A stretch of 64,000 nucleotides of DNA from an uncultured Gemmatimonadales bacterium (GTDB lineage: Bacteria > Gemmatimonadota > Gemmatimonadetes > Gemmatimonadales > GWC2-71-9): contig CAVYSW010000003.1 of assembly GCA_963771275.1 (NCBI GenBank), positions 32,001 through 96,000 of the forward strand, written 5' to 3'. Shown here piece after piece: positions 44,979 to 50,996 of this stretch. The position numbers and the translations under genes were made by a program. Every line of letters starts with the position of its first letter. Position 1 is the stretch's first letter. The notes beneath the pieces are model-generated. The model did not search any database and was not told where the DNA came from. It was given only the letters and a program-made list of their open reading frames with translations.

Positions 44979-46496
44979 GTGGGCCAGCAGCAGCCGGATT
45001 CGCGTGTCGCGCCCCAGCCGTTCCCGTCGGGCCTCGCGGTGCGGCTCGCCGCGATCACGAGTGTGCTCGCGGTGGTGCTCGTGCTCGCCGCGACGGAGAT
45101 CGCGCTCTCCTGGTCCGAGCGTTCGCGGCTGGACGACACCCGGCGCGAGGCCATGGCGGTGGGGAACACGCTCGCCTCCTACCTCACGCGGATCGCCCCG
45201 GCCGGTGACCGCGACTCGCTGGTCGCCGGGTTCGCGCGCTGGGCCGGCCACGACGTCTCCAACACCGAAGCGACGCTCTACCTCGTCGAACGCGGGCTCC
45301 TGGTCACGGCGACCGCCGTGGACAGCAGCCTGCTGGTGCCGCCGGGACCGCTCGACAGTGCGGCGCTCGCCGGCCGGGCGACGCAGGTCACGTTCCAGGC
45401 GCAGCCGGAACCCACCTGGCGCATTGCCCTGCCGCTCGGCGCCGGCGCGCCGTTCGGCGTGCTCGACGTGAGCGTGTCGGCGCAGCGCCTGGCGGACTGG
45501 GCGCGCACCGAGCGGCGTCGCGCCTACGCGCTCGCGCTCGCCTCCGCCCTGCTGGTGGCCCTCGGCGTTGCCTGGCTGATCACCCGCTGGGTGGGTCACC
45601 CGCTGCGCCAACTCGGCCGGGTGATGGCAGCCGCAGGCCAGGGCGCGGAGTGGGGACCGCAGGCCGCGGAGATCGGCCCCGCCGAGTTCCGCCTGCTCGC
45701 CCGCCGCTACAACGCGCTGCGCGGAGCCCTGATCCGGCGCGAGCGCGAAAGCGACGCCCGGGCGGCGCTGCTCGCGCTCGAGGAGCGGGCCCGCTCGCTC
45801 GACCGGCTCGCGGCGATGGCGGAGACGCGGGCGAGCTTCGCCCACGAAGTCGGCACACCGCTCAACACCGTGCGCGGCCATCTGCAGCTGCTGCGCTCGG
45901 ACATGGAAGACGCCGGCGCGCCCGCCGGCGCGCGGGTCGACCTGTTGCTGGACCAGGTGGATCGCCTCACGGCCATCGTCCGGAAGGGACTCGAGCGCTC
46001 CGCGTGGCCGCCTCCCCAGCCCGAGTCCGTCGATCTCCGGGGCCTCGCCGACCGGGTACTGCGATTCCTCGAGCCGTCGTTCACGGCGGCCGAGGTCGCC
46101 GTCTCGCTCGTGCCCACGACCGGCTGGTCGAACCCGGTCCGGGCGCGCTGCGACCCCGCCATGGTCGAGCAGATCCTGCTCAATCTCCTCAAGAACGCGA
46201 TCGAGGCCACGCGCCCCTCCGGGCATGTCACGGTGTCGGTGGGCGCCCGCGATGAGAAAGCGGAGCTCCTGGTGGCCGACGACGGGCCCGGCCTCTCGAG
46301 CGAGATGCGCGCCCAGTTGTTCAGCCCGTTCGCCACCACCAAGGGCTCCGGCGGCACAGGCCTCGGCCTCGCCGTCAGCCGCCGCCTGGCCCGGGCGCAC
46401 GACGGCGAGCTCGAGCTCGTGCCCACCGAGAGCGGTGTTACGTGGCGGCTGCTGCTCCCCCTCGCCGAACCGCCGATACCGGAGATCATCCCATGA
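44979..46496 (+). CDS. Membrane sensor histidine kinase (periplasmic sensor, HAMP, HisKA, HATPase)
   Basis: Two TMs; FAHEVGTPLN, NLLKNAIEA, DDGPG, PFATTK, GTGLGL. GTG with GAGGAG RBS; upstream GTGCCG-N18-TATACT. Confidence 0.93.
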   Translation: MGQQQPDSRVAPQPFPSGLAVRLAAITSVLAVVLVLAATEIALSWSERSRLDDTRREAMAVGNTLASYLTRIAPAGDRDSLVAGFARWAGHDVSNTEATLYLVERGLLVTATAVDSSLLVPPGPLDSAALAGRATQVTFQAQPEPTWRIALPLGAGAPFGVLDVSVSAQRLADWARTERRRAYALALASALLVALGVAWLITRWVGHPLRQLGRVMAAAGQGAEWGPQAAEIGPAEFRLLARRYNALRGALIRRERESDARAALLALEERARSLDRLAAMAETRASFAHEVGTPLNTVRGHLQLLRSDMEDAGAPAGARVDLLLDQVDRLTAIVRKGLERSAWPPPQPESVDLRGLADRVLRFLEPSFTAAEVAVSLVPTTGWSNPVRARCDPAMVEQILLNLLKNAIEATRPSGHVTVSVGARDEKAELLVADDGPGLSSEMRAQLFSPFATTKGSGGTGLGLAVSRRLARAHDGELELVPTESGVTWRLLLPLAEPPIPEIIP

Positions 46497-47932
46497 CCAC
46501 CCGCGGACGCCTGCTGCTCGTGGACGACGACGAAGCCGCCTGCCAGCTCCTGGCGGAGGTGTTGCAGCGCGAGGGTCACGAGGTCGCGACCGCGCTCGCC
46601 GTGGACGAGGCGTTGGCGACGATCGGGCGCGCCGGCCCGTTCGACGCCGTCGTCACGGACCTCCGCATGCCCAACGCCAGCGGCCTGGACCTGCTGCGCC
46701 ACATCCGGGCGCGGGATCCGCAGGCAATCGTGATCGTGGTGACCGCGTTCGGCGACGCATCGGTCACCGCGGCCGCGATCAACGCGGGGGCCTACGATTT
46801 CATCAGCAAGCCCTACGACCTCGCGCTCGTGCGGGAAACGATCGGCCGCGCGCTCGAGCGGCGCGGCCTGGCGATCCGGCACCGCGCGGACGACGACGCG
46901 TCCGCCACGGCCGCGGCGACCACGCCCGACGACGAGGCCCCCATGCTGGTGGGCCGCAGCCCGGCCATGATCGGCGTGGTGAAGCTGCTGGCGCGCGTCG
47001 CGCGGTCGCAGGCGACGGTGTTGCTGCTCGGCGAGAGCGGCTCCGGCAAGGAACTGGCCGCTCGCACGCTGCACCGCCTGTCGGATCGCGCCGACGGCAA
47101 GCTCGTGGTCGTCAACTGCGGCGCGCTCGCCGAGACGCTGCTCGAGAGCGAGCTGTTCGGCCACGTGAAGGGCGCGTTCACCGGCGCGGCGAGCGCCCGC
47201 CCGGGGATGTTCCGCGAGGCCCACCGCGGCACGATCTTCCTCGACGAGATCGGCGACATCTCGCCCGGCCTCCAGACTCGGCTGCTCCGCGCGGTGCAGG
47301 AGAAGGAGGTGCAGCCGGTCGGATCCGAGGCGGCGATCGCCGTGGACGTGCGGGTGATCGCCGCCACCCACCGCGACCTCGCCGAGATGGTGCGACAGGG
47401 CCGGTTTCGCGAGGACCTGTACTACCGGCTCAACGTGGTGAGCGTGACGCTGCCGCCATTGCGCGAGCGGCGGCAGGACATCCCCCTGCTGGTCGATCAC
47501 TTCATTCGCCGGCTCGCCCGCCAACACGGTCGCGGGCCGATCGCGCTCGACCCTCAGGCGGAGGTGCTGCTGCACCAGTTCGACTGGCCCGGCAACGTCC
47601 GGCAGCTGCAGAACGTGCTGGAGCGCGCCGTGGTGCTGGCGGAACAGGGGGTGATCGGCCCGGAGCATCTCCTCCCGGAGATCCGCCACCCGGTGCCCGC
47701 GACACCGCGGCCGCCGTCAATCGGTGCGGCTGCCCCCACCGAGCGGCCCACCGGCTCCCCGGACCTCACCTCGGTCGCGCTGGCCGACGTCGAGCGCGAG
47801 CACGTGCTGCGGGTGCTCGACGCGGCGGGCGGGCGGCGCGAGGTCGCCGCCAAGGCGCTGGGGATCTCGCGGCGCACCCTTACCCGCATGCTGCAGCGCT
47901 GGGACATCGACGTCCCGCGACGGCACGCCTGA
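46493..47932 (+). CDS. Sigma54-dependent response regulator (ZraR/AtoC-like)
   Basis: REC (LVDDD, TDLRMP, TAFG, SKP), GESGSGKE, intact GAFTGA, REDLYYRLNV, WPGNVRQL, HTH LGISRRTL; ATGA coupling to the kinase. Confidence 0.95.
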   Translation: MTTRGRLLLVDDDEAACQLLAEVLQREGHEVATALAVDEALATIGRAGPFDAVVTDLRMPNASGLDLLRHIRARDPQAIVIVVTAFGDASVTAAAINAGAYDFISKPYDLALVRETIGRALERRGLAIRHRADDDASATAAATTPDDEAPMLVGRSPAMIGVVKLLARVARSQATVLLLGESGSGKELAARTLHRLSDRADGKLVVVNCGALAETLLESELFGHVKGAFTGAASARPGMFREAHRGTIFLDEIGDISPGLQTRLLRAVQEKEVQPVGSEAAIAVDVRVIAATHRDLAEMVRQGRFREDLYYRLNVVSVTLPPLRERRQDIPLLVDHFIRRLARQHGRGPIALDPQAEVLLHQFDWPGNVRQLQNVLERAVVLAEQGVIGPEHLLPEIRHPVPATPRPPSIGAAAPTERPTGSPDLTSVALADVEREHVLRVLDAAGGRREVAAKALGISRRTLTRMLQRWDIDVPRRHA

Positions 47933-48068
47933 GACACGTTGGCGCGCCCGGACAAGCTGTCCGGCGCCGCCGCGTCAGACTGCCCCACATCCGCCGCCCC
48001 CACCGGGGATGCAAACCGGTTGTCGTGCAACAGGTTGTGCGTCGGCGTCCCGAGGGCATGCCGGTTGC
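47932..48068 (+). promoter_or_regulatory. Sigma54 promoter module 1 (enhancer boxes, IHF-like site, -24/-12)
   Basis: GGACAagcTGTCC 47950-47962, CGTCAgacTGCCC 47973-47985, CAAcaggTTG 48028-48037, GGGCATGCCGGTTGC 48054-48068. Confidence 0.8.
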
Positions 48069-50930: not shown

Positions 50931-50950
50931 CGGGGATCGCGTGCAGGTTC

Positions 50951-50996
50951 GCGTGGCGGTCGCCCCGACGGGGGCGCGGCCGCCACGCAATGTTTT
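50951..50996 (+). terminator. Probable intrinsic terminator after htrA
   Basis: GCGTGGCGGTCGC...GCGGCCGCCACGC stem followed by AATGTTTT. Confidence 0.55.

Follow-up and report, generated by a model that had tools for sequence, protein, structure and literature searches.

The window analysed here, a stretch of 64,000 nucleotides (nt) from an uncultured Gemmatimonadales bacterium, contains five co-oriented genes encoding a sensor histidine kinase, a sigma54 activator of the NtrC family, two small exported proteins with a single peptidoglycan-binding domain (PGBD) each, designated PG1 and PG2, and a Do-family HtrA protease (Table 1). The original prediction, made from the sequence alone, had put this block forward as a candidate envelope-stress regulon in which a coupled kinase and GAFTGA-bearing activator drive the two PGBD proteins and HtrA. 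Judging from gene order, promoter elements and their conservation, the sigma54 two-component regulon itself is very probably real. Coordinates refer to the window, C-numbers to contigs of this genome (G000), and G- and L-handles to genomes and loci, respectively.

The pairing of the kinase and activator genes was confirmed by Pfam domains and by the overlap of the two open reading frames (ORFs), and the identity of the three targets agreed with Pfam and TIGR02037 matches. HtrA has all catalytic motifs (TNNHVV, ADIAV, and GNSGG) and scored 482 bits with TIGR02037 (cut-off 416). The PG_binding_1 domain (PF01471) scored 51.8 bits in PG1 and 45.1 bits in PG2 with a cut-off of 23; it is present once in each protein, and no catalytic domain was found in either by Pfam search. 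Signal peptides were assigned by eye and with a hydrophobicity rule. As had been claimed, each target is preceded by its own sigma54 promoter with shared enhancer-like sites (P1, P2, and P3, the last being the weakest) and followed by a terminator-like hairpin (T1, T2, and T3). A simple terminator scan did not list these hairpins, and no terminator was found between the activator gene and P1 (hairpin z -0.94). A sigma70 promoter was not found in 44500-51300, nor was there an Rfam match at E 0.1 in 44500-51200. The P1-PG1-T1 and P2-PG2-T2 units represent one tandem duplication with 412 of 598 aligned bases identical, and therefore the motifs shared by P1 and P2 are not independent evidence. The first P1 enhancer site (47930-47944) overlaps the activator stop codon, as in many relatives; activator bound there might block read-through from its own operon.

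Table 1. Features of the locus and two distant genes predicted to belong to the same regulon
Feature	Position	Strand	Basis and remarks
Sensor histidine kinase, 505 amino acids (aa)	44979..46496	+	Pfam HisKA, HATPase_c, weak HAMP; alignment; structure model
NtrC-family sigma54 activator, 479 aa, REC-Sigma54_activat(GAFTGA)-HTH_8	46493..47932	+	Pfam
P1 enhancer-like palindromes at 47932, 47950, 47973	47932..47985	.	Matrix scores 7.9, 12.5, 6.8
P1 IHF-like core CAA-N4-TTG	48028..48037	+	18 nt 5' of -24 GG
Sigma54 promoter P1, GG 48055-56, GC 48067-68	48053..48070	+	Score 14.4; predicted start ~48080
PG1, 133 aa, signal peptide, basic Q/P/A-rich linker, one PG_binding_1	48133..48534	+	Pfam
Terminator-like hairpin T1	48557..48594	+	z -4.15
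P2 enhancer-like palindromes at 48615, 48638, duplicate of P1 set	48615..48650	.	Matrix scan
IHF-like core 48693-48702 and sigma54 promoter P2, GG 48720-21, GC 48732-33	48693..48735	+	Score 12.5
PG2, 129 aa, tandem duplicate of PG1, 51% identical, less basic	48797..49186	+	Pfam
Terminator-like hairpin T2, homologous to T1	49211..49250	+	z -3.02
P3 enhancer-like sites, weak 49273 (3.9), strong 49295 (11.7)	49273..49307	.	Matrix scan
IHF-like core 49349-49358 and weak sigma54 promoter P3, GG 49375-76, GC 49387-88	49349..49390	+	Score 3.7
Do-family HtrA protease, 476 aa, trypsin and 2 PDZ	49500..50930	+	Pfam, TIGR02037
Terminator-like hairpin T3, short T run	50951..50996	+	z -2.44; 7/200 shuffles equally good
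Third PGBD-only gene, trans, no regulator nearby	C9:192998-193393	-	Among the genome's two best enhancer pairs
DUF5666 lipoprotein gene, trans, no regulator nearby	C9:82099-83331	+	Among the genome's two best enhancer pairs

Kinase orthologues (53-62% identity) were found in 30 genome loci, all titled Gemmatimonadales or Gemmatimonadota. The activator was present in all of them, and a single PGBD-only gene directly followed the kinase-activator pair in 28; PG1 is the occupant of this conserved target slot. Of the two exceptions, L022 ends 137 nt past the activator, and L019 has the promoter and no PGBD gene. Among the 15 metagenomic loci in which the activator is intact and followed by 300 nt or more, 14 contained the PGBD gene; this count leaves out L129, where only a fragment of the activator is present, and L117, which stops 33 nt past the activator gene. 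Six distant metagenomic loci, L133-L138 (25-33% identity), two of them near an htrA gene, were dropped as non-orthologous. Of the 59 genomes of this family, 10 had the kinase, versus none of 241 from other families of the class; among six further genomes of the genus, it was found in one. Genomes with G-handles and L loci may overlap, and the counts are not additive. Thus, the conserved linkage claimed earlier holds for the kinase, the activator and the PGBD gene. It does not extend to htrA, which adjoins none of the 30 loci (27 with at least 2 kb read past the PGBD gene), or to PG2, which in L108 (91% kinase identity) is a remnant lacking both promoter and signal peptide. In terms of gene order, the five-gene layout is best regarded as a local elaboration of a three-gene core rather than a conserved system. 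In L019, a motif pair and a sigma54 promoter behind the activator (L019:10878-11522) precede a stretch of about 200 nt that closes with a terminator-like hairpin and may represent a small RNA or a tiny ORF; neither an Rfam match at E 0.1 nor a PGBD gene was found in this tail. MprF and VirJ are encoded directly upstream of the L019 kinase.

The promoters of relatives (the 28 PGBD loci, L008, and L022) contained the sigma54 element TGGCAY-N5-TTGC and two GHCA-N3-TGDC sites in 30 of 30 cases, the fit being set to pick two sites per promoter; the sites are mostly 17-20 nt apart and 52-95 nt upstream. When a matrix derived from the relatives only was applied to the 339 sigma54 candidates of this genome, four had pair scores of at least 19, versus a mean of 0.09 and a maximum of 1 such candidates in 100 column permutations. 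These were P1, P2, and the promoters of the third PGBD gene and the DUF5666 lipoprotein gene, both predicted to be trans members of the regulon. A similar footprint was observed across genomes: 15 of the 34 motif-pair loci in 10 kinase-positive genomes were intergenic with a sigma54-like element, versus none of 7 in five kinase-negative genomes, in which the best activator matches were at most 48% identical over full length. All 7 promoters of this genome, G003 and L108 have, between the enhancer and the promoter element, the core CAA-N4-TTG, which we take to be the consensus of integration host factor (IHF); it occurs in 64 of 2994 background windows (2.1%) and in none of the 29 promoters from other relatives. 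This genome encodes two members of the IHF/HU family, and a match to what we assume to be the RpoN box (C10:444016-445545) presumably marks rpoN. At C3:1199832, a strong sigma54 element (16.2) is accompanied by a single motif site (10.6) 5' of an 822-aa gene that is Lon-like by its start; its membership in the regulon is uncertain, no partner site being present.

The target slot is not occupied by the same protein in all lineages. Three genomes of the genus g13 encode a ComEA-like HhH protein there, behind the same sites and promoter. The kinases of these HhH-slot loci form one clade (support 0.995), and PGBD is found on three other deep branches; in this FastTree tree of 20 sequences, midpoint-rooted and with no clade test, an ancestral PGBD follows from parsimony only. 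Candidate trans targets in the relatives include HhH and DUF3761 proteins, two exported basic low-complexity proteins without domains (G018 and G130), Pal, a 311-aa exported protein, a GldA-like ABC transporter gene, and another paralogue of HtrA; matches to the comEA and GldA models did not reach the cut-offs. In the trans htrA, Pal and ABC genes, the sites are located 3' of the -24 GG, at a distance of about 73-97 nt. Such downstream pairs, which might be enhancers or operators, were observed in L065, L067, L079 and L086 (GldA-like ABC), L141 and L153 (htrA), and L087 (Pal), and in three ABC promoters the pair is 86 nt from GG. Downstream enhancers have a precedent in FlrC and FleQ; our literature search turned up no paper on them.

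Two HtrA paralogues carry the motif. Besides G003, a genome of the same genus, only G088 among 120 family genomes was found to have window-type HtrA; its gene lacks both the motif and the sigma54 element, and no match to the kinase was found in that genome. In G003, a 71% identical htrA follows a PGBD gene and is preceded by a perfect site (19.2) and the same sigma54 element; the kinase and PGBD genes of G003 lie at the ends of separate contigs, which leaves their adjacency unproven. Aligned with the window, these elements before the G003 orthologue support P3. The second paralogue, about 40% identical to that of the window, has a sigma54 element and motif in G130 and G018; among htrA loci, this combination was found in 2 of 28 in kinase-positive genomes and 0 of 9 in kinase-negative ones. 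Apart from the htrA genes of the window, G003, G130, and G018, which have both motif and promoter, 26 of the 28 loci lack the combination. HtrA apparently joined the motif twice, through different paralogues and in different ways, and is not a fixed member. In the window, PG1 is likely the oldest target; PG2 arose by recent duplication, and htrA was apparently recruited at the level of the genus and has a promoter copy of its own. A block of two PGBD genes and htrA as a conserved system is not upheld.

These data bear on two other explanations. That the repeated motifs reflect duplication plus chance, with htrA outside the activator's control, would suit the duplicate origin of P1 and P2 and the weak score of P3. 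It is highly improbable, since the promoter is conserved in all 30 relatives, two distant genes were recovered independently by the relatives-only matrix, and the P3 elements are retained in G003 and missing 5' of the G088 homologue. In the second explanation, PG1 and PG2 are wall-anchored adaptors feeding substrates to the adjacent HtrA, for which CpxP and DegP provide a precedent (PMC4160245). The PGBD and htrA genes are indeed adjacent and, by their promoters, co-regulated in the window and in G003, but the lack of htrA beside all 30 loci, the rarity of window-type HtrA, and the finding of motif-bearing trans htrA genes in the genus with HhH instead of PGBD in the slot make this role very unlikely.

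Comparison of compositions indicates that the small targets share a signal peptide and a basic Ala/Thr/Ser/Pro/Lys-rich region, not a wall-binding fold. We compared 27 small targets (22 PGBD, 2 HhH, 2 domain-free, and 1 DUF3761) with 106 small exported proteins of this genome as a reference. The 90th percentile was exceeded for both positive charge and A/T/S/P/Q/K content by 26 of the 27 targets and by only one of the 106 reference proteins. The PGBD itself matches the SleB and CtpB structures. Asp31 and Asp54 of AP3gp15 were put forward, as a proposal only, as a fingerprint of wall binding (PMC5674055). Of 21 PGBD sequences, two have Asp at the first of the corresponding columns (DG positions) and none has it at the second; the columns were tentatively mapped from the structure match and the 23-residue spacing, and CtpB also has Thr at the second site. 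Wall binding by PGBD is plausible, not assured.

The polycationic nature of the small targets, the loss of the Asp fingerprint in PGBD, and the presence of ComEA-like HhH, DUF3761 and the GldA-like ABC gene among the targets could also be explained if the products bind polyanions (DNA, wall, or polysaccharide) at the surface or in the matrix and serve attachment, motility or DNA capture, not stress. We consider this quite unlikely: the finding of HtrA twice and Pal once points to periplasmic upkeep, the comEA and GldA matches are subthreshold, and no route across the outer membrane was evident, though no search was aimed at one.

The Bacteroidota O-glycosylation motif D-S/T-A/I/L/V/M/T is present in 19 of 21 PGBD proteins. 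In G000, this motif occurs at 2.04 times the expectation in 330 predicted exported proteins and at 1.0 in 1243 cytoplasmic ones (Fisher p 4e-18), with A, I, L, V and T in the third position, and the control motifs led by E, N and G are flat; the count refers to one genome with crude export prediction and without an outgroup control. This suggests that Gemmatimonadota have an O-glycosylation system of the Bacteroidota type. The available text of PMC12871550, its tree figure excluded, names Fibrobacterota and not Gemmatimonadota, and no report of such a system in Gemmatimonadota was found in our literature search. Elsewhere in the window, the region 41468-42816 encodes an exported Gln-rich helical protein of 156 aa, Spy/CpxP-like by eye only, followed by a 292-aa gene without a Pfam match. 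Another PG_binding_1 match, at 22096-22272 (C3:54096-54272), lies in a 314-aa frame dissimilar to PG1 and PG2.

The kinase has two membrane helices, a periplasmic single Cache/PAS-type domain (about residues 45-180), HAMP, HisKA and HATPase_c; the H box (H289 in AHEVGTP) and the ATP-binding boxes are intact in the alignment. The mean predicted local distance difference test score (pLDDT) of the model was 72, with about 78-92 across the sensor. The modelled sensor is an sCache_3_2 look-alike and aligns to the extracellular domain of WalK (Z 13.0, root mean square deviation 2.2, 131 residues, 10% identity). Foldseek with the whole kinase gave chiefly kinase-core matches, and the named matches of the sensor region in a sequence search were generic or Gemmatimonadales. 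As modelled, the WalK-type fold reveals no function. The sensor domains are neutral to basic, 19 of 24 being net positive with a median of +3. Metal sensing was considered and not adopted, since a sensor without Cys and with a single His retained in 20 of 24 sequences is insufficient to claim it. The recognition helix of the activator, SRRTL(S/T/A)RM, is conserved among orthologues and was not seen in the other 10 activator matches of the genome; the activator scores under every named NCBIfam cut-off shown. As to autoregulation, only a single site (44688), inside the upstream ygaP-like gene, and no site pair was found in the window. A motif pair with a weak sigma54 element 5' of the kinase was observed in G021 (L045:3941-3971), the only such case among the loci examined, and suggests autoregulation in this genome alone.

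The original prediction assigned to the PGBD proteins a role like that of ZraP or CpxP. One form of it is that PG1 binds and damps the periplasmic domain of the kinase, being titrated by wall damage or removed by HtrA. ZraP and CpxP act so (PMC4987338, PMC4160245), and CrdB of Myxococcus xanthus has been proposed to relay envelope signals to its own system (PMC3147164). Such a feedback ligand would agree with the target gene coming immediately after that of the activator in 28 of the 30 loci and with the WalK-type fold of the sensor; moreover, the CpxP-CpxA contact was suggested to be electrostatic (PMC4160245), and a basic linker could act in this way with any domain. However, the slot of one kinase clade holds the unrelated HhH fold, the slot is empty in G174, G011, and L124, and this genome has three divergent PGBD copies, one of them elsewhere on the chromosome. 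In addition, the sensor domains are not acidic, and the Asp pair put forward as a wall-binding fingerprint is missing from PGBD. The ZraP/CpxP-type feedback role is somewhat disfavoured, and we regard it as unlikely.

We propose instead a regulon of basic exported effectors. The periplasmic-sensor kinase would phosphorylate the coupled sigma54 activator, as the gene overlap and the footprint suggest, and the activator would bind the paired GHCA-N3-TGDC sites and open the -24/-12 promoters, with IHF presumably bending promoter DNA in this genus. The products would be small, strongly basic, largely low-complexity periplasmic effectors, which might act as holdases similar to the acid shock protein Asr or as polyanion binders, the PGBD, HhH or DUF3761 module perhaps being a swappable tether. 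HtrA, Pal, the DUF5666 lipoprotein and the GldA-like ABC transporter would be lineage-specific additions. An envelope-protective purpose is probable, and the envelope-type nature of the targets agrees with the original claim; the reading as a whole, an envelope-protective sigma54 regulon with Asr-like basic exported effectors, we give an even chance. The cue can be guessed to be envelope damage or acid/cation stress; the neighbouring genes (MgtE, DedA, SulP, and in L019 MprF with VirJ) weakly hint at acid or cation stress. A bolder and rather doubtful version is that polycationic, disordered, probably O-glycosylated periplasmic proteins with unrelated swapped tethers stand behind one enhancer, with HtrA recruited twice. 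If true, this would be a functional analogue of Asr made from different parts, and the "PG-binding-only" proteins would work through their basic tails.

Several observations weigh against the regulon of basic effectors. PG2 is outside the basic class (86th and 81st percentiles), homologues of PGBD make up 22 of the 27 small targets, and no Asr match was obtained among the Pfam and NCBIfam searches, so that the likeness to Asr is compositional only. Most genome loci represent one syntenic site, and the conserved loci are kin, not independent events; G174, G011 and L124 keep the kinase and activator without motif or target behind them. P3 was missed by the genome scan, being below its threshold because its sigma54 score is only 3.7. 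Taken by itself, the motif pair does not reach genome-wide significance (8 pairs versus 0-78 in 25 permutations) and needs the sigma54 element to be informative. The membership of htrA, Pal and the ABC transporter is, from their distribution, patchy: the GldA-like gene has the motif and sigma54 element in three genomes, the motif only in one, and neither in five other kinase-positive genomes, including this one. Finally, the downstream sites of the trans genes may repress rather than activate.

Sequence features of NtrB/NtrC-type systems are present at the locus, including an intact HisKA kinase, a REC-AAA+-HTH activator with GAFTGA, and paired sites with -24/-12 promoters in 30 of 30 relatives. 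The claim that the combination is undescribed stands in part: it was not found in the literature searched (titles and abstract starts, with most subscription journals outside coverage), and the nearest precedent, CrdS-CrdA-CrdB, had been missed. Within the same limits, we found no characterised sigma54 regulon in Gemmatimonadota. The available text of a cross-phylum sigma54 survey (PMC12316311) does not mention this phylum, and the motif in the available part of bioRxiv 10.1101/2021.11.28.470282 differs from GHCA-N3-TGDC. Thus, the regulon is apparently undescribed, and its architecture (a two-component system, a small periplasmic protein and a protease) is of an already known kind. It offers a defined operator, promoters and targets open to heterologous reporter testing. 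It also brings together three unexplained kinds of small exported proteins, PGBD-only, ComEA-like HhH-only and DUF3761; since one regulatory slot and a basic tail are common to them, they acquire a candidate function.

Escherichia coli Asr has a basic, Lys/Ala/His-rich make-up and is under two-component control. It was described as a disordered periplasmic chaperone (PMC10746267). Like Asr, the targets here are small, exported, strongly basic and of low complexity, and the resemblance is closest for the domain-free targets of G018 and G130. Unlike Asr, most of them carry a folded module, and control is by sigma54. CpxR is a sigma70 regulator of the OmpR type; in contrast to CpxAR-CpxP-DegP, the activator here is not OmpR-type, the small protein has another fold, and the HtrA link is patchy. 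Common to both systems are a Cache/PAS-type sensor and a small periplasmic protein under one two-component system (PMC4160245), to which an HtrA protease may be added here. ZraSR-ZraP is also a sigma54 two-component system with a small periplasmic main target and a link to envelope stress; however, it is divergent and autoregulated, while the target here is downstream and co-oriented, and in place of a zinc-binding chaperone the target contains PG_binding_1 only, with no Spy/CpxP-family match (PMC4987338). The kinase scored 108 bits with the ZraS family (cut-off 479) and the activator 407 with the ZraR family (cut-off 760), both below the thresholds.

The closest published arrangement is CrdS-CrdA-CrdB of M. 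xanthus, a sigma54 system beside a peptidoglycan-binding OmpA lipoprotein, in which the targets of CrdA are given as unknown (PMC3147164). Both systems comprise a two-helix HAMP kinase, an NtrC-like sigma54 activator, and a conserved neighbouring periplasmic protein that binds or is predicted to bind peptidoglycan, and for both a function in envelope stress has been proposed. Unlike CrdB, an OmpA-domain lipoprotein thought to act upstream, PG1 is a soluble PG_binding_1 protein without Cys and with its own sigma54 promoter and enhancer, and the protein in its slot is replaceable by HhH.

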